Both the position numbers and the translations under genes were made by a program. From Bdellovibrionales bacterium (lineage in GTDB: Bacteria; Bdellovibrionota; Bdellovibrionia; Bdellovibrionales; JAMPXM01): DNA of 45,931 nucleotides. Positions within the stretch are counted from its first letter, which is position 1; the number at the start of each line of letters is the position of its first letter. Shown here piece by piece: positions 13,045-20,759 of the stretch. Below the pieces are notes generated by a model, which saw only the letters and a list, made by a program, of their open reading frames with translations, searched no databases and was not told where the DNA came from. Location: the NCBI GenBank assembly GCA_043739185.1, contig JAYUEN010000188.1, forward strand, positions 1 through 45,931. The letters run 5' to 3'.

Positions 13045-13623
13045 TTAATCTATCAGGCTTTTTAGATTTTTGTAAGCAATTGCAACCAACATATTGATTG
13101 CCTCGAGGTCAGAGCTCAGATTCAGCTTCTCCTTGACCTCCCGAATCATGTACTGGCTACTCGAATTTAGCTGTGGAGTCTGCACTTTCGACCCAGGAAT
13201 TTCGCTTCGGAGCTGAGCCGCAAAACCTTGAGGCGCTTGAACGCGCTCCTGTTGAAAAACTGGCGGCGGAAGAGGGGGGAGCTGGGGCGCCGGACTCGTT
13301 GACTGGCTCATTCCTTGACTCAAACCTTGATTGGCCGGAGCAGGATCTTCAAATTGCTTTAGACCCTCAGCCAATGACTTTAAATCCGTCATAAAGTTCT
13401 GCGCACTTACTGGTGCGTCGGCATAAGGATTGGTACTTTGGCTTTCCATCTTCTTTTGATTATAGAGCTGAGATCTTTGAGTTTTTAAGTAAAGTGCAAT
13501 CAAAGATTCAGGATTCCGAGCAAGTTCGCGCACCGACTCGGGCTGAGCTTGCAGCCACATATATGCTTGGGAAAGCATTTCGCGTGTGAACGCCTGAGGA
13601 GGATATAAATTGCTCGATGACAT
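13045..13623 (-). CDS. Hypothetical protein (structured ends, Gln/Pro-rich linker)
   Basis: 192-aa ORF co-oriented directly upstream of ileS. Confidence 0.75.
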   Translation of the reverse strand: MSSSNLYPPQAFTREMLSQAYMWLQAQPESVRELARNPESLIALYLKTQRSQLYNQKKMESQSTNPYADAPVSAQNFMTDLKSLAEGLKQFEDPAPANQGLSQGMSQSTSPAPQLPPLPPPVFQQERVQAPQGFAAQLRSEIPGSKVQTPQLNSSSQYMIREVKEKLNLSSDLEAINMLVAIAYKNLKSLID

Positions 13624-13865: not shown

Positions 13866-14261
13866 ATGAAAATATTTTTCTTTGCCCTTGTAATCGGACT
13901 TCCATTTTTTGCACATGCCGCAGATCCTTGCTTAGATATTAAAACAAACTTCATAGGAACTTTCGCCACGGTTGCAAGCTCCAACTACGGCCCCACTGAA
14001 CGTGATATAGTTGAAGTTACCAAATGGCCCGATGGATTGATCTTCACCGTTATGGTCAATGGAATCCCTCAGCAACAGTATCACATCGAATTTGGCGAAG
14101 GCTCATCGAAGGGTCATCCGACCTGCTTGCTTTCAATCGGCCAAGCTGTTTTGACCTCTACTTTTGTAGATGCTGTCAAAGGACACTTTAGCTTTACCGG
14201 AATGAATGCACGCGGCCCATTTAAGATGGAAGCCACTCGCATCGGTGCTCGCCTTCATTGA
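13866..14261 (+). CDS. Secreted hypothetical protein
   Basis: AAGGAG RBS, signal peptide ending AHA|A, two Cys. Confidence 0.75.
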   Translation: MKIFFFALVIGLPFFAHAADPCLDIKTNFIGTFATVASSNYGPTERDIVEVTKWPDGLIFTVMVNGIPQQQYHIEFGEGSSKGHPTCLLSIGQAVLTSTFVDAVKGHFSFTGMNARGPFKMEATRIGARLH

Positions 14262-14652
14262 AGGTGCCTGCTAACATTTCGTAATTAAGCGCTTGAAGGT
14301 TTTGAATTGACTCTACTTTAGCGAGCTGATTTTTTCGATTGGTCGTCATTTCGTTTGAAAACTCGAATTGTTTTTTTCGAAAGGCGGCCTTGAGATCTTT
14401 TGCTTCAACTTTATCATATGCTTGGTTAAGCCAATTGAGCACAATTTCTGTAGAACTAAAAAGAGTTGCATCTTCAATAAGCGGAATGATTCCTCGCTTT
14501 TTTCCAAGAAGAATTTGAAGGCTGCTCCAAGGATATTCTTCAACGTGTTCGCAGATCTCGGCGGCCACTGGATTTCGATAAGTATATTTACAAACATGCA
14601 AATAATAGAGTGGATTTGATACCACCGAATTATAATATCGCTGCCCCCTAAA
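14221..14652 (-). pseudogene. Truncated REP-associated tyrosine transposase (RAYT/Y1) remnant
   Basis: In-frame FRGQRYYNSVV..YYLHVCKYTYRNPVAAEICEHVEEYPWSS matches the RAYT C-terminal half; no room for the N-terminal HUH part before the upstream gene stop at 14697. Confidence 0.75.
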
Positions 14653-14696: not shown

Positions 14697-16187
14697 CTAG
14701 GTGGCACTCTCAAAATAATCTTTTGCGTTGATTCCGTATTTTTCGATTTTGCGAAGCAAAGTCTTTTTTGGAATATTTGCATGAAGAGCTGTTTGATTGA
14801 TTCTGCCTTTAAAAGCCTTCAAGGCTTTTATGATAAATTCTTTCTCAAAGGCTTCTTTGTGCTTATTAAAATCAAGCGCTTCGCCATTGATTGATACCAT
14901 TTCAAGGCTCTCTTCAGCCGTATCATCGCTCAGCTCTGAGCCAATAGATTCAAGTTCATCATCGTCAAGAATTTCGGCGTCAATTGTTGGCGCTGATAGA
15001 TTTGAAACGCTCACTCCGGTTGCCATCAAAACCGATTCAGGTAAAGAAGCAAGAGTTAAAATATTACCGGTCTCTAAGATAAAGGAATGCTCAATAACAT
15101 TTTCAAGTTCTCGAATATTTCCTGGCCAGTCATACTTTTTCATAACTGAAGAGGCTTCAGGCGACATTCCGATGACTCTACGTGAATGAGTCTTATTGAA
15201 CTTTTTGATAAATGTTTGGATTAAATTTTCAAGGTCATTTTTTCGCTCAGCTAAAGAGGGCAAAAATATTGGAATAACATTCAAGCGATAAAATAAATCT
15301 TCTCTGAATTTTCCTTCTTTGATCATTTCTTCTAAGGGGCGGTTGGTAGCCGCGATAACGCGAACATTGGATTCAATCTCCCGATTGGAACCTACTGGAG
15401 TGAATAGTTTCTCTTGTAAAACCCGTAGCAATTTAACTTGCATAAGAACCGGCATATCACCGAGTTCGTCTAGGAATAGGGTTCCGCCTTCTGCGAATTG
15501 AAATTTACCAACTTTTCTTTCGGAAGCGCCTGTGAATGAGCCCTTTTCATGGCCAAAGAGTTCGCTTTCAAATAGATTTTCAGGAATAGCAGAACAATTG
15601 ATGGCAACAAACTTTTGATCTTTGCGAGCAGAGTTAAAATGAATGGCTCTGGCAACCAGTTCCTTACCAGTTCCTGAAGCTCCGCGAATCAAAACCGGAG
15701 TATCCACTTTTGATAGCCGATTGATGATATTAAATACTTTTTGCATTTCAGCGGTATTGCCGATGATTTTGCGGCCGGCCTCCATAAGGACTGGTGCGCT
15801 AGCAGCAATCTCAGAGATTAAACTTTGAGCTTTCAAAGCGCGATCCATGAGAGCCAATAGATCTTCGCCTTTGACAGGCTTTGAAATATAGTTGAAAGCG
15901 CCCTCTTTAACAGCGCGAACCGCATTGTCGATGGTCGCATAAGCTGTCATGACAATAACAATAATGCTGGGATCATATTCTTTTATAAGCTTGAGGGCTT
16001 CAAGGCCATCAAGGCGAGGCATATCGACATCTAATAAAACCAAACTATACGAATTGGCTTTTACTTTTTCAATGGCATTGATGCCATCAAAGGCCTCATC
16101 AATTTCAAATTGGCCACGTTGGGCAAGACTTTCTTTTACTGAAAATCTTAAGCCCTGATCATCGTCGACTACTAAAACTTTAAGCAT
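14697..16187 (-). CDS. Sigma-54-dependent response regulator (NtrC family, REC-AAA+-HTH)
   Basis: VLVVDDD/LDVDMP receiver, GASGTGKE, ESELFGHEKGSFTGA, LFLDELG, WPGNIRELEN, C-terminal HTH. Confidence 0.95.
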   Translation of the reverse strand: MLKVLVVDDDQGLRFSVKESLAQRGQFEIDEAFDGINAIEKVKANSYSLVLLDVDMPRLDGLEALKLIKEYDPSIIVIVMTAYATIDNAVRAVKEGAFNYISKPVKGEDLLALMDRALKAQSLISEIAASAPVLMEAGRKIIGNTAEMQKVFNIINRLSKVDTPVLIRGASGTGKELVARAIHFNSARKDQKFVAINCSAIPENLFESELFGHEKGSFTGASERKVGKFQFAEGGTLFLDELGDMPVLMQVKLLRVLQEKLFTPVGSNREIESNVRVIAATNRPLEEMIKEGKFREDLFYRLNVIPIFLPSLAERKNDLENLIQTFIKKFNKTHSRRVIGMSPEASSVMKKYDWPGNIRELENVIEHSFILETGNILTLASLPESVLMATGVSVSNLSAPTIDAEILDDDELESIGSELSDDTAEESLEMVSINGEALDFNKHKEAFEKEFIIKALKAFKGRINQTALHANIPKKTLLRKIEKYGINAKDYFESAT

Positions 16188-16263: not shown

Positions 16264-18138
16264 CTATGTACCCTCAACTTGAACTTGAGGCAACTCCACA
16301 GTGAATGTCGATCCTTGGCCAGGTGAACTGTCCAAGCTAATTCTTCCTTTATGGAGTTCCACAAAGTATTTAGCAAGATACAAGCCAAGGCCAGAACCCT
16401 TAATTACCGATGATTTTGCGGACTTACTTCGATAGAACTTCATAAAGACGTGACCAATTTCGTCGGCTGGGATTCCGTTACCTTGATCGGCAATCTGTAC
16501 GACGATATGGCCATCGCGCTCTTCGGTAGAGACCAAAATACGTGATTTTTCAGGGCTATATTTGATCGCATTTTCAATGAGGTTCGAAAACACCTGCCGG
16601 ATCAAATCCACATCCATTTTGAGGCTAAAAAGGGTCTCAAATTCGGTTTGAATGACGATATTTTTTTGGCTGGCGGCATATTCACATTTCGCGATCACTT
16701 CATCTAGAAGTTGATTGGGATCCTTGCTTGATAGGTGGAGCTTGAGTTCTTTGCTTTCAACTCGGCCCAAATTTAAAATAGAACTTATAAACTCAACCAA
16801 TTCGTCACAAGATTTTCGGATATTTAAAACCGCATCTCGCTGGCGCTCCGAAAGAGCTGCGGCTTCACCCATTACGACATCGGTCATGCCGCTGATGCGA
16901 GCCAAAGGGGTTTTCAAATCATGCGACATCATACTTAAGAAATTTGTTTTGAGCTCTTCTACTTGAGTTAGCAATCTGTTTTTTTGCAGATATTCCCAAC
17001 TCTTGCGATTTTCAATAATAAGGCGATAGGGAATGAAAAAATAATAACAGACAAAAATCGATAAAAATGGATGACTCATATCAATCCACAGTCCCGCCCA
17101 CCAAAAAAGAAAATAACAAATAATTGAAAACGACACAAAGGCTCCACCCAGAATTGCTAGGCCCTTGGTGGGTTTTACTAAGAGCACGACATAAACAGTG
17201 AGCATTGATATGAGGCTGGTTATAAGTAAGCTGAGCCATGAGGGAGTCTGCACAAAAGCAGAATTCAAAATCATAGTATCGAGCATATTGGCATGCATTT
17301 CTAAGAAACTCATGGCGATGACATCTCTTGAAAATGGTGTTCGAACATAGTCGTCAACGGTAGCCTGAACGTCTCTGCCCACGACGACAATGCTATTCTT
17401 AAATTGGCGGCGATCTAATTTGTCGTTCATAGCATTGAAAAAACTAGTGCGCGGATAAGTACCTGATGGTCTAAAATCGATAAAAACTTGGTTGGAGGCA
17501 AAAAATTTGAAAAGCCCACGAATATTTTTTTCATCGCGTATTTCGGTATTGTAAAGACCGGCGACCGTAGGATGCATCAGCATTTCATTTTGAAAGGAGG
17601 TAAACATACGACGTGTGACATCGTCTTTTGCAGCCAATTTCAAATCAGATGTATAGGGCGCAGATACCGCTTTGAGTTTTTCAAATGGCGGCCTAGGTAT
17701 AAAATTGGCCTCTTGGCTCTTTGGCCAAACATCACTAATGGCAATCATGAAAAAGGGGAATTCTTCGGCCTTATGTGCAAGTGCCACGAGTTCATCGTAA
17801 CTGCCAACGACTTCGCCAGGACTAATCAAATAGATAACAACTTTTACGCCAGCCTCTTTTAATTGCGAAAGCAACTTAAGGTGATCGCTCGCATTTGGCG
17901 TGCGATTCATGCTGTCGATGGTTTTTGGGTCAATCGCTATAGTTTGAACAAATCCAGACATCGGAGAAACGGGTTTAAGCCTCATGCGCAGGTCATAGAG
18001 GTAGGACTCAATGAAATCGAAACTAAATTGATTCAAGATAAAGGCAATAGAAAGCGCAAAGCTCACTCTGACGAGTGTCTGTAAATGCCTTTCAAAAACT
18101 AATTTCAATTGGTGAAACCAAGCTAAAACTAACTTCAA
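16264..18138 (-). CDS. CHASE2-domain sensor histidine kinase
   Basis: N-terminal TM, YLYDLRMR..IAID..T and EMHAN CHASE2-like motifs, 3 TMs, SHDLKTPL, NLIENAIKYS, DQGNGI, GSGLGL; TTG start. Confidence 0.9.
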   Translation of the reverse strand: MKLVLAWFHQLKLVFERHLQTLVRVSFALSIAFILNQFSFDFIESYLYDLRMRLKPVSPMSGFVQTIAIDPKTIDSMNRTPNASDHLKLLSQLKEAGVKVVIYLISPGEVVGSYDELVALAHKAEEFPFFMIAISDVWPKSQEANFIPRPPFEKLKAVSAPYTSDLKLAAKDDVTRRMFTSFQNEMLMHPTVAGLYNTEIRDEKNIRGLFKFFASNQVFIDFRPSGTYPRTSFFNAMNDKLDRRQFKNSIVVVGRDVQATVDDYVRTPFSRDVIAMSFLEMHANMLDTMILNSAFVQTPSWLSLLITSLISMLTVYVVLLVKPTKGLAILGGAFVSFSIICYFLFWWAGLWIDMSHPFLSIFVCYYFFIPYRLIIENRKSWEYLQKNRLLTQVEELKTNFLSMMSHDLKTPLARISGMTDVVMGEAAALSERQRDAVLNIRKSCDELVEFISSILNLGRVESKELKLHLSSKDPNQLLDEVIAKCEYAASQKNIVIQTEFETLFSLKMDVDLIRQVFSNLIENAIKYSPEKSRILVSTEERDGHIVVQIADQGNGIPADEIGHVFMKFYRSKSAKSSVIKGSGLGLYLAKYFVELHKGRISLDSSPGQGSTFTVELPQVQVEGT

Positions 18139-18217: not shown

Positions 18218-18244
18218 AACTAGAGCTCCGGAAGAGCCCTAGCT
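18218..18244 (-). terminator. Stem-loop 3' of the peptide gene (weak terminator or stabiliser)
   Basis: mRNA sense AGCTAGGGCTC-TTCCG-GAGCTCTAGTT, weak U-tract. Confidence 0.5.
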
Positions 18245-18268: not shown

Positions 18269-18391
18269 TTAATCGTGTCCGGTCGGAACACAGCCCATGG
18301 ACATGGTTTTTTCAATGACCACTTTTTTGCCGTCTTCTTTTCGAACTGCGAGCTTCGCCTTATTTGGGCTTACTTTCTTAATAAACTTCAC
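18269..18391 (-). CDS. Putative RiPP precursor peptide, 40 aa: MKFIKKVSPNKAKLAVRKEDGKKVVIEKTMSMGCVPTGHD
   Basis: Translated by hand (below ORF-track cutoff); GTG start with AAGGAG RBS, overlaps the rSAM stop, TAA at 18269-18271, single Cys34. Confidence 0.8.
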   Translation of the reverse strand: MKFIKKVSPNKAKLAVRKEDGKKVVIEKTMSMGCVPTGHD

Positions 18392-19772
18392 TTTGCTCTC
18401 CTTCACTTTCAGACTTTCGTGATTCTTCATAATATTCTAGTCCCTTCTGGATGATGGCTCTGGTTCGAGTACAAAACTCAGAGTCTTTTTTATGTTTATC
18501 TTGAGTGCGCGAACGGTGAACAAACATACAGCCGCCACCGCAAATATACTTAGCCCAGCAATCTCCACAATTGTTTAACTTAACCAGAGGATCAGCATAT
18601 TTGCCTAATTTTTCTTGGTCAATTGAGAGGCCTGAACCCAATTCTTCTTTTTTGTCGCCCACAAACCAATTGCAAGCATAAAACTTACCTTGGGTGTCGA
18701 CTTGTAGCACTGACTTTCCAGCTCCGCAATAGTTATGAATTCTCTTTTGTGAATCTAGAATTTGAAAATAATCATTAAATTGAGAAATTTTTCTTAGCGC
18801 CAATTCGCCACCTTTTTTAAAGGCGAAGTCAGCAGTTCGAAACAATTCTCGCAAATAGACTGGGCTGTGAATTTCATCTTCTAAGCCTGTTGCATAGGTA
18901 AACAGGATGCGATCCCAGTCAAATTTCTGCAAGAAAACATAGGTATTAAAAACTTCGGTATTGTGAGCTCCAAAAACACTGTGAACGCTCAGTGAGCCCA
19001 ATTGATCGTGCACTTTAAATAGGTCGGTAACACCTTTGAGGCATTTCTCAGTTGATCCAAGGCCGCCGGCAGTTGGTCGAGTCAAATCATTCATTTCCGC
19101 AGGTCCATCTAAGCTCACCACAACATTGACTTCAAAGCGGGCAAGCATTTGGGCAACTTCTGCATTGATCAGAGTTGCGTTTGTGGTGAGATCATAGCGA
19201 ACCGTAATTCCTCGAGGTAAGGCAAGGGCGTTGGTATATTCAGCAATGGCCACAAGTGCTTCCGGATAAATGAGTGGCTCGCCACCAATGAAGTTGATCG
19301 CGAATTTTTCATTGTCATCGAGGCGTTTTAAGAGAAGTTCAATTTGTGGAGTGACTTTGCTAATATCAACTTTGGTAACTTTTGAACCATAGGTACCGTC
19401 GCCATCAGCCGCACAATAGGTACATCTCAAATTGCAAACTTGAGTCACATTGATTGAAAGGGAGCGAATCTTCTGTTTGATATGGGCATCACCAACATCG
19501 GGATCCTTAGAGTCGCTCCAAGAAAGCACTTCACTCATCATTTCATTCTCAAGAGGCGAGCTTTGGGAAACAAAGGATTTCTGGTCGATCAAATTCCAGA
19601 TTTTTGGATCGAGTTCGGCGACATGCATATTTTCAACATGAAAGCCTAGAATTCTCTTTTCACTAATCTTAAATGCCACGATATTGCCGTAAGCTTTAAG
19701 GGAAGGCTGATCAGAAACAGGATCAAAAGCCTGATTCTCTTCCTTTTGAATTGTTTCTTCGGCCAAAAGCAT
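18378..19772 (-). CDS. Radical SAM/SPASM peptide maturase (ranthipeptide CteB/QhpD-like)
   Basis: CNLRCTYC, FIGGEPL, TTNATL, VSLDG, SPASM YCGAG..C and CGDCWAKYICGGGC..FC; ~100-aa N-terminal extension (RRE-like); ATG 19772 after GAGGG (ORF opens at 19793). Confidence 0.9.
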   Translation of the reverse strand: MLLAEETIQKEENQAFDPVSDQPSLKAYGNIVAFKISEKRILGFHVENMHVAELDPKIWNLIDQKSFVSQSSPLENEMMSEVLSWSDSKDPDVGDAHIKQKIRSLSINVTQVCNLRCTYCAADGDGTYGSKVTKVDISKVTPQIELLLKRLDDNEKFAINFIGGEPLIYPEALVAIAEYTNALALPRGITVRYDLTTNATLINAEVAQMLARFEVNVVVSLDGPAEMNDLTRPTAGGLGSTEKCLKGVTDLFKVHDQLGSLSVHSVFGAHNTEVFNTYVFLQKFDWDRILFTYATGLEDEIHSPVYLRELFRTADFAFKKGGELALRKISQFNDYFQILDSQKRIHNYCGAGKSVLQVDTQGKFYACNWFVGDKKEELGSGLSIDQEKLGKYADPLVKLNNCGDCWAKYICGGGCMFVHRSRTQDKHKKDSEFCTRTRAIIQKGLEYYEESRKSESEGEQSEVY

Positions 19773-20024
19773 AGACATCCCTCGTGGGCGCAAAGCGCAC
19801 CGGAACTAGTGAATTGCAATAATCTGTCCAGAAAATTGGTGTCATTTTGCACTTAGGTCCTAACGGAACAGTGGGCTTTGGTGCCGCTACTATTTTGCTC
19901 AACTTTCGACTAAATATTTGAAAGCCTTTTGTATTTTGGCAAGCGCTTGCTTAAAATAATGAAGTACTGGCAAAATTTAGTGGCCCGCGAGAGTCGATCC
20001 TGGGGTCGATAAAGGCATGTAAAA

Positions 20025-20759
20025 ATGAGACGCAAACATATTGAGAAATTCATTTTAGCACTGACTCTATTTATTGCGGCCTGCGCCTACCGAGTCGATA
20101 AAACTCAAATTGGTAATGGCAATACAACGCTCGGAAAACCTAAAACGCCACTTAATTTTGCAATGGTTGAGGCTGCGGTATTTGAAGCCAAATGTTGCCG
20201 CTGTCATAGCAATGAAACCAAGAATTCTGGTAATTTGAATCTCGAAACCTATGCCAATGTACGTGCGGCACTTTCTGCGATTCAAGATGATATTGTTTCA
20301 GAAACAATGCCGAAAGCTCCAGGTCTGCCACTCTCTGAAGAAGAAAGAGTTATGCTCCTTCAGTGGATTCAAATGGGAGCTCCTGAAGTCGGCCCGGTGA
20401 CCCCAACGCCGACGCCAACTATTACGCCGACACCAACTCCAGCGCCCACACCGGATCCTCCAACACCGGGTTTGATGCCAACATTTAGCTCCATCAATTC
20501 ACTTATTATTCGCGCTAAATGTTTTGATTGTCACAATGCTAACGGTAAAGCGAGTGATGCTCCATTTGAAAAATATGAAGATATTGTCGCTGGGTTTATT
20601 GTTATTCCGAAACTACCGGATAAAAGTTCGCTGCTAAAACACATTCTCCCGGGTGCCAAAAAATTAATGCCTCCGCCTGATTCTAAATACAATGCCATTG
20701 CGCCTGAGGATGCATTGATTATCAGGCAATGGATTTTGGATGGGGCCTTGAATAATTAA
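20025..20759 (+). CDS. Diheme c-type cytochrome lipoprotein (planctomycete cytochrome C-like domains)
   Basis: Lipobox FIAAC, two CxxCH (CCRCH, CFDCH), each followed by MP...WI..GA; PT-rich linker. Confidence 0.85.
   Translation: MRRKHIEKFILALTLFIAACAYRVDKTQIGNGNTTLGKPKTPLNFAMVEAAVFEAKCCRCHSNETKNSGNLNLETYANVRAALSAIQDDIVSETMPKAPGLPLSEEERVMLLQWIQMGAPEVGPVTPTPTPTITPTPTPAPTPDPPTPGLMPTFSSINSLIIRAKCFDCHNANGKASDAPFEKYEDIVAGFIVIPKLPDKSSLLKHILPGAKKLMPPPDSKYNAIAPEDALIIRQWILDGALNN

Follow-up and report, generated by a model that had tools for sequence, protein, structure and literature searches.

Several described systems resemble parts of a four-gene operon that we analyzed in a contig of a Bdellovibrionales bacterium (contig JAYUEN010000188.1 of assembly GCA_043739185.1), a stretch of 45,931 nucleotides referred to hereafter as the window, to whose full length all positions refer. 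The CteB/SCIFF system (structures 5wgg and 5why; model TIGR03974) has the same combination of a recognition element (RRE) for peptides made ribosomally and modified post-translationally (RiPPs), a radical S-adenosylmethionine (SAM) domain and a SPASM domain with seven cysteines, and likewise has a cysteine-bearing precursor next to the enzyme. PapB (freyrasin; NF047865) and QhpD (TIGR03906) share with the window's enzyme a broad RRE/SPASM group, and its nearest outgroups score best on these two models. Anaerobic sulfatase-maturating enzymes (anSME; 4k36–4k39, TIGR03942) have a similar fold and a C-x-P(-x-R) substrate motif. At the level of gene organization, the staphylococcal agr and Bacillus comQXPA peptide-pheromone loci also unite a maturase, a small precursor, a membrane kinase and a response regulator in one unit. 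Their variable block ends in the kinase gene between its sensor and kinase halves, and relatives of the operon may have a block of this kind. Judging from sequence, the operon in the window would work like a thioether RiPP system joined to an agr/comQXPA-type locus and would be a member of neither named family.

The genes for the radical SAM enzyme, its peptide, a CHASE2 sensor histidine kinase and a sigma-54 activator form one four-gene, sigma-54-driven operon. We lean towards the view that the operon makes a small cyclic peptide and that this peptide is the ligand of the adjacent kinase. The features of the operon in the window are as follows:

19815..19830, minus strand: sigma-54 (−24/−12) promoter-like box TGGACAGATTATTGCA, a motif match about 45 nucleotides before the ATG of the radical SAM gene
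18378..19772, minus strand: radical SAM/SPASM maturase, 464 amino acids, from profile, sequence and fold matches; orthologue of Bd3357 of Bdellovibrio bacteriovorus HD100
19503..19703, minus strand: RRE-type N-terminal domain, about residues 24–90, strands followed by two helices, from a structure model and alignments
19413..19436, minus strand: CxxxCxxC radical SAM motif (C113, C117, C120)
18471..18728, minus strand: seven-cysteine SPASM domain in the CteB pattern (C349 to C434), from alignments
18398..18403, minus strand: ribosome-binding site AAGGAG of the precursor gene, within the 3' end of the radical SAM gene; similar sites in relatives
18269..18391, minus strand: precursor peptide, 40 amino acids (MKFIKK leader, lysine-rich linker, single-cysteine core), from pattern conservation; orthologue of HD100 Bd3358
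18281..18292, minus strand: core Cys34-Val-Pro-Thr37 (family motif C-x-P-x)
18218..18244, minus strand: 12-bp hairpin between precursor and kinase genes, without a U-tract and weakly conserved
16264..18138, minus strand: CHASE2 sensor histidine kinase, 624 amino acids, from Pfam; orthologue of HD100 Bd3359
14697..16187, minus strand: activator with receiver, sigma-54 AAA+ and Fis helix-turn-helix domains, 496 amino acids, from Pfam; orthologue of HD100 Bd3360

The original prediction, made from the letters of this DNA, had singled out a 40-codon reading frame with one cysteine beside the radical SAM gene, downstream of it and with no protease or exporter adjacent. The frame is present as described (GTG at 18391, TAA ending at 18269), with its AAGGAG 6 nucleotides upstream of the GTG. 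The claim that the start overlaps the radical SAM stop needs correction: the frame shares the last 14 nucleotides of the radical SAM gene, whose stop ends at 18378, and the GTG lies outside the stop codon. The peptide had also been called hidden, which is true of the window's open reading frame (ORF) track; the HD100 annotation, however, lists it as a hypothetical protein (CAE78161.1 / Q6MI21), identical to the 38-residue peptide of locus L067. It had no match of note in Pfam or NCBIfam, and neither a profile nor a pattern found a second copy in the window's genome.

Conservation argues that this small frame is a gene. A scan of genome contigs yielded 215 confirmed relatives of the radical SAM enzyme, and the comparison uses the best 80 of these 215 (79 titled as Bdellovibrio-type, one as Streptomyces). 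With the window this gave 81 loci, of which 75 were evaluable after removal of six with a cut match or contig. A first, narrow peptide pattern recovered 45 of the 75; broadened after inspection of the misses, it found a leader-plus-cysteine ORF 3' of the radical SAM gene in 74, and the remaining locus (L091) has one by eye. The locus genomes are kin, so these counts are not independent trials. Among 2313 long-ORF ends of the window's genome that served as control, the broadened pattern matched 33, and with C-x-P added it matched the precursor locus alone. Furthermore, the four same-genus copies differ at 103 third codon positions versus 32 and 35 at the others, and their codons differ synonymously in 78 cases and non-synonymously in 47. 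The 40-residue frame is thus almost certainly a real gene, paired with its maturase, and its conservation across Bdellovibrio-type genomes agrees with the expectation that it belongs to a predatory lineage. None of 67 pattern matches in viral contigs was confirmed as a homologue.

The promoter and the two regulatory genes, which the original prediction did not include, are part of the same conserved arrangement. A TGG-N8-TTGC box, based on the −24/−12 consensus of sigma-54, precedes the radical SAM gene in 56 of 71 loci (0.76 in shuffled sequences, 0 on the opposite strand; 116 of 2274 upstream windows of the window's genome in the control), and just one of 74 loci has a box between the end of the radical SAM gene and the kinase gene. 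The CHASE2 kinase gene lies directly 3' of the peptide in all 71 loci with enough sequence, and the activator is present in 59 of 60. A site resembling that of integration host factor stands beside the box in 23 of 56 loci (5.7 in shuffles), the window having no such site. The hairpin that had been noted 3' of the precursor is there (18244–18218), 25 nucleotides after the stop. A role as terminator was rejected: it has no U-tract, a terminator scan made no call, the 142-nucleotide region has a z of −1.56, and conservation is weak, with strong hairpins 3' of the peptide in just 18 of 74 loci. Possibly it stabilizes or attenuates the transcript.

By model cut-off, the enzyme falls outside the named maturase families. 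Among the best 25 NCBIfam peptide-maturase models listed, none reached its cut-off: PapB scored 186 bits (cut-off 340), QhpD 152 (453), SCIFF 123 (425; 120.6 bits with TIGR03974 in the genome search), anSME 82 (349) and mycofactocin 56 (265). This bears out the original placement of the enzyme outside SCIFF, PapB, QhpD and mycofactocin. When 1.84 billion representatives were searched by profile, there emerged a tight family that passes, near 220 bits, into generic PapB/SCIFF/nif11/QhpD-like proteins; in the ESM Atlas, radical SAM clusters were the sole return. A tree that combines 67 family loci with ten other proteins shows the family as one clade (support 0.93), within which two of the ten fall; set against PapB, it is a clade of its own apart from two PapB-passing proteins. 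The nearest solved structure by sequence is CteB (163 bits with the family profile, versus 72 for anSME), as is the nearest fold (5wgg; Z score 36.6, root-mean-square deviation 2.8, 403 residues aligned over 29–452; mean confidence, pLDDT, of the model 91), and anSME ranks third to fifth whether the search is by sequence or by fold (Z about 32).

Sequence and fold also indicate how the enzyme may handle its substrate. The three cysteines of the radical SAM motif and SPASM cysteines 349, 367, 402, 405, 411, 415 and 434 are invariant in all 48 aligned homologues. The full SPASM set that had been claimed is therefore specifically the seven-cysteine pattern of CteB; anSME has one more. In this pattern the first auxiliary cluster would keep an open site for a substrate thiol. 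Since 403 residues align to CteB within residues 29–452, at least 46 of residues 29–95 must do so; the alignment of the family profile with TigE (8vpo) begins at position 12 and takes in the TigE N-terminus. Together the two alignments support the RRE-like extension of the original prediction as a predicted RRE-type domain; folded alone and without an alignment, this segment gave a model too poor to use (pLDDT 58, best Z 2.7).

The peptides combine a conserved leader with a variable body. The leader consensus is K/H-F/H-I-K-K ([MK][FH]IKK), followed by a linker of 13–70 residues and a core with a single cysteine in 72 of 73 distinct cores. Proline occupies +2 from the cysteine in 67 of the 73 and +1 in four more; of the GCxPxG core expected downstream of orthologues, it is thus C-x-P that is conserved and not the flanking glycines. 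The tail beyond the cysteine has 3–12 residues, and +3 is always occupied, by Val, Leu, Thr, Ser, Gln or Ile and never by Gly. Same-genus cores all read CVPTGHD, and the peptides of cultured B. bacteriovorus strains end in GCIPVR. In 26 of 74 peptides the cysteine stands fifth from the C-terminal end, a likeness to the agr/comQXPA pheromones. Cleavage after a double glycine before the cysteine was rejected, Gly being at −2 in just 15 of 74 peptides. Locus L034 (and also L006) has two precursor-like ORFs in tandem within 270 nucleotides after the radical SAM stop (cores CVPVG and CAPLG). Variant cores with proline at +1 or absent (CPE.., CEI..) occur at L063, L076, L091, L098 and L082, which lie in a separate branch of the enzyme tree.

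We consider it likely that the enzyme forms a thioether ring in this peptide. The RRE-type domain would bind the leader while the variable linker lets the core reach the active site, where the first auxiliary cluster would bind the core cysteine at its open site. A 5'-deoxyadenosyl radical could then take a hydrogen from a nearby core residue and leave one thioether ring (−2 Da). The link would most likely be to the +3 residue across the proline turn (Thr37 in the window), or to the proline itself; +3 stays a candidate as a position and not as a residue type. The original prediction had instead named the side chains of Thr37, His39 or Asp40, as in CteB- or PapB-type ranthionines. As the definition of the class this is quite improbable and does not survive the comparison: Thr is at +3 in 11 of 73 cores, His at +5 in 4 and Asp or Glu at +6 in 14, and 33 of the 73 have no T, D, E or H after the cysteine at all. 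The best NCBIfam model (PapB, among the 25 listed), the best structure (CteB) and the CVPTGHD cores of the same genus do favor a ranthionine. However, Asp at +4 and Thr at +5 occur in 3 and 4 of 73 cores, so that with one cysteine there are no C-x3-D repeats as in PapB substrates, and SCIFF has six cysteines in about 45 residues and no downstream precursor. Furthermore, the catalytic site of CteB consists of F112, F152, T186, S210, H363 and Q364 (PMC10288494, of which one supplement, when searched, had no Bdellovibrio entry). The window's enzyme has A121, I162, T196, S220, N368 and W369 at these places, and the family A, L, V/T/I, S, P/Q/N and W, so that Phe112, Phe152, His363 and Gln364 are replaced; over the first four places, most of the outgroup proteins read Y/F-F-T-S. 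Because just two of the six residues match, thioether chemistry is not assured.

An improbable alternative is that the enzyme oxidizes the cysteine alone, as anSME converts cysteine to formylglycine, or introduces some other oxidation and no thioether. The near-constant C-x-P without a conserved acceptor would suit it, as would an active site unlike that of ranthisynthases and the rank of anSME in the searches. The C-x-P-x-R core of cultured Bdellovibrio also matches the sulfatase motif. Yet Arg follows C-x-P-x in a minority of cores (12 of 73; R or K in 18), with Gly or Ser in 37, and the substrate is a peptide of 30–80 residues read by an enzyme with an RRE-type domain. In addition, anSME has a further auxiliary-cluster cysteine and the Asp of a YPCD motif after the second cluster cysteine, presumably catalytic, where the family has seven cysteines and P/Q/N followed by W. 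An ATP-grasp counterpart in related loci (below) implies a ring as well. Very improbable is the reading in which the small ORF is a coupling or leader peptide and the enzyme a housekeeping one, as its HD100 label 'heme biosynthesis' would have it. Source annotations, the near-universal presence of the enzyme in two families (19/19 and 66/67 genomes) and the very variable linker speak for it. Against it, the peptides keep an invariant cysteine and a conserved leader beside enzymes that are just 38–45% identical, the NirJ1 model scores 57 bits versus a cut-off of 650, and 104 of the 201 genomes surveyed in the order lack the enzyme by the threshold applied.

Published data for HD100 place the operon in the phase of growth inside prey. 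The clusters of the L067 neighbors contain CAE78160, CAE78162 and CAE78163, which identifies the operon with HD100 Bd3357–3360. According to the accessible part of PMC2797640, the four genes are up in the bdelloplast and not in host-independent growth (1.6, 2.0–2.2, 2.1–2.2 and 3.0 fold), with Bd3361 flat in the same comparison; the text available there names Bd3359 and Bd3360, as sensor-regulator genes only. The enzyme, kinase and activator proteins peak at 2–3 h, with log2 abundances of 4.8-5.1-3.8, 5.1-5.9 and 5.2-7.2-4.6, respectively, in the available tables of PMC12546842. From attack to growth phase, the four genes rise from 0.7 to 41, 2.6 to 26, 1.3 to 34 and 4.4 to 88 reads per kilobase per million (RPKM), as most growth genes do by this measure in the accessible data of PMC3627812. 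The Tn-seq (transposon sequencing) supplement of PMC6561027, as far as available, has no HD100 tags for the operon genes and hence no fitness data. RNA contigs from four runs span the operon of L067 relatives, three beginning near the predicted start; they were not used as evidence because they show neither starts nor levels.

The proposed ligand role draws on the way in which the kinase varies together with the peptide. Compared with nine loci with the core CIPVR, L106 (core CIPLG) differs by 6–8% in the kinase half, by 59–64% in the sensor half and by 46–51% in the radical SAM enzyme. The activator is 92% identical, and in the kinase the break falls sharply at residue 360–380. L139 and L145, two loci of the ATP-grasp type with different peptides, differ by 1% in the kinase half and 63% in the sensor half, with the same break. 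Close pairs without the peptide (L144/L146 and L119/L121) diverge evenly and show no break. These two events are suggestive of peptide, maturase and sensor half diverging as a block, with one counter-example: between L069 and L064, L071, L075 and L105 the core changes from CIPTN to CIPVK with just about 20% change in the sensor. In the proposed circuit, the activator would drive the sigma-54 promoter of the operon, an unlinked protease and exporter would release the modified core, and the periplasmic CHASE2 domain would sense it, so that the kinase phosphorylates the activator and closes a positive loop. This loop may fire while the predator is settling into the prey periplasm, whose volume is small.

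The slot between promoter and kinase is not always filled in the same way. The radical SAM gene was found in 97 of the 201 genomes of the order surveyed, including 9 of 68 in a third family besides the two named above, of which the 19/19 is the window's own; a phylum sample added two weak matches outside the order. Kinase orthologues (E below 1e-100) occur in 141 genomes, 44 of which lack the radical SAM gene. In 40 of these 44 we inspected the kinase locus: none has this radical SAM gene 5' of the kinase, 25 have a sigma-54 box within 400 nucleotides of it, and eight have some other small ORF, led by a ribosome-binding site, between box and kinase. Six of the eight encode lysine-rich, cysteine-free peptides that carry Ser/Thr and Asp/Glu towards their end:

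L131:2088-2183, between sigma-54 box and kinase
L139:2122-2235, between sigma-54 box and kinase
L140:2111-2188, between sigma-54 box and kinase
L143:4805-4939, between sigma-54 box and kinase
L145:2113-2196, between sigma-54 box and kinase
L153:2118-2201, between sigma-54 box and kinase

L162 is a seventh locus of this kind. All six genomes encode an MvdC/MvdD-like ATP-grasp maturase, in four of them at the same locus. Of 374 genomes searched in the order, just 9 have this enzyme, and the three main radical SAM families lack it. Its best models (TIGR04184, TIGR04185, TIGR04187) give 77–131 bits versus cut-offs of 350–475, and the window has no such enzyme. Because the cysteine-free slot peptides co-occur with this maturase, two unrelated ring-forming enzymes appear to serve one slot, and these loci of sister lineages may be a graspetide-type version of the operon.

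Other loci without the radical SAM gene hold further genes around the slot. At L135:2128-2256, whose genome is nested among cassette-bearing ones but no longer has the radical SAM gene, a 42-residue peptide with two Gly/Asn-rich repeats ending in KPPF fills the slot; no maturase was seen, and a second kinase lies upstream. The 45-residue slot peptide at L157:4512-4649 begins with a Sec-like hydrophobic stretch, has a C-x-x-C towards its end and is possibly a secreted third type. In L120, L123, L124, L130, L132, L136, L142, L148 and L154–L156, a lipoprotein-like gene of 280–390 codons, without a Pfam family where tested (L136), stands just before the sigma-54 box and kinase.

Several observations weigh against a ligand role for the peptide. 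A convincing slot peptide is missing in 32 of the 40 inspected loci without the radical SAM gene, so the kinase can exist without a peptide, and, among the 107 kinases of the tree, no alignment column distinguishes cassette-bearing loci from the others. No conserved activator-binding dyad was found 5' of the promoter. The locus has no exporter or protease and the peptide no signal sequence; AgrB was found in none of five genomes, a C39 peptidase in the window's genome and, weakly, in one of five cultured genomes, and TldD in three of five genomes and not in the window's. The peptide is missing from the proteome table in the accessible part of PMC12546842, and the available data of PMC3627812 flag three of the four genes as silent (below the expression threshold), the peptide gene having 1 and 3 reads. 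Much of this would fit a reading that we regard as unlikely, though the strongest of the rivals, in which the peptide is output and not input: the kinase would sense a prey-entry cue, and the modified peptide would be the first product of the regulon, whether as a ring peptide with a territorial or antimicrobial role or as a modulator of the kinase or activator in the cytoplasm. The slots without a peptide, the 25 of 40 loci that retain the box before the kinase, the five or more losses or gains of the cassette on the tree of 107 kinases and the missing export route all favor it. It leaves unexplained, however, why the sensor half alone diverges with peptide and maturase in two lineages while peptide-less pairs diverge evenly, and why two unrelated ring-forming chemistries occupy one slot.

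A few genes lie near the operon or elsewhere in the genomes. Two adjacent open frames of roughly 1000 residues in the window's genome (L115 and L117) have C39 peptidase matches, with a third, short one (L116), away from the locus. In the window, a divergent gene at 20025–20759 (plus strand) encodes a lipoprotein that combines a Pro/Thr linker with two CxxCH cytochrome c domains and adjoins the operon only within the genus (4 of 75 loci). A 192-residue protein without a Pfam match (13045–13623, minus strand) lies 3' of the activator, near ileS and lspA, in most loci with enough sequence. A 134-residue ORF (14221–14625, minus strand) has a start reminiscent of the C-terminal part of REP-associated/IS200-type transposases. 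HD100 and L067 have a siderophore-interacting gene 3' of the operon. L102, titled Streptomyces griseus, carries the operon (kinase 49% identical), groups with Bdellovibrionales loci, lacks the activator in the expected place and is probably a mislabelled or mixed bin. A full-text literature search, with most subscription chemistry journals outside its coverage, returned no description of the peptide, its product or the circuit, and the accessible parts of PMC12186529, PMC13642348, PMC13635244, PMC3526173, PMC9062424, PMC13692751 and PMC10114670 held no relevant mention.

Taken further, the preferred reading of the peptide as kinase ligand allows a tentative proposal, to which we give somewhat less than even weight: Bdellovibrionales, as Gram-negative predators, would run a circuit of the agr kind with a cyclic peptide as pheromone. 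Its kinase/activator pair would have been fed, in the course of evolution, by interchangeable ring chemistries, a radical SAM thioether across C-x-P-x, possibly a new link to an aliphatic residue or proline, or an ATP-grasp lactone, and the peptide, in strain-specific dialects, would report confinement or kin in the prey periplasm and trigger the growth switch. Unlike agr and comQXPA, it would have a Gram-negative host, a CHASE2 sensor, a sigma-54 activator, a radical SAM or ATP-grasp maturase and no AgrB, signaling itself being a proposal; and unlike CteB/SCIFF, it links the maturase to a kinase and an activator. To our knowledge, the signals that time the switch of Bdellovibrio from attack to growth are largely unknown. 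The operon names a small, deletable set of genes in the model strain (Bd3357–3360) that rises on prey entry, and gives a concrete candidate ligand. If the proposal is true, it would add a peptide-pheromone circuit in Gram-negative bacteria, a class of ligand for CHASE2 domains, and a minimal one-cysteine radical SAM macrocyclase that tolerates linkers of 13–70 residues and many residues at +3.

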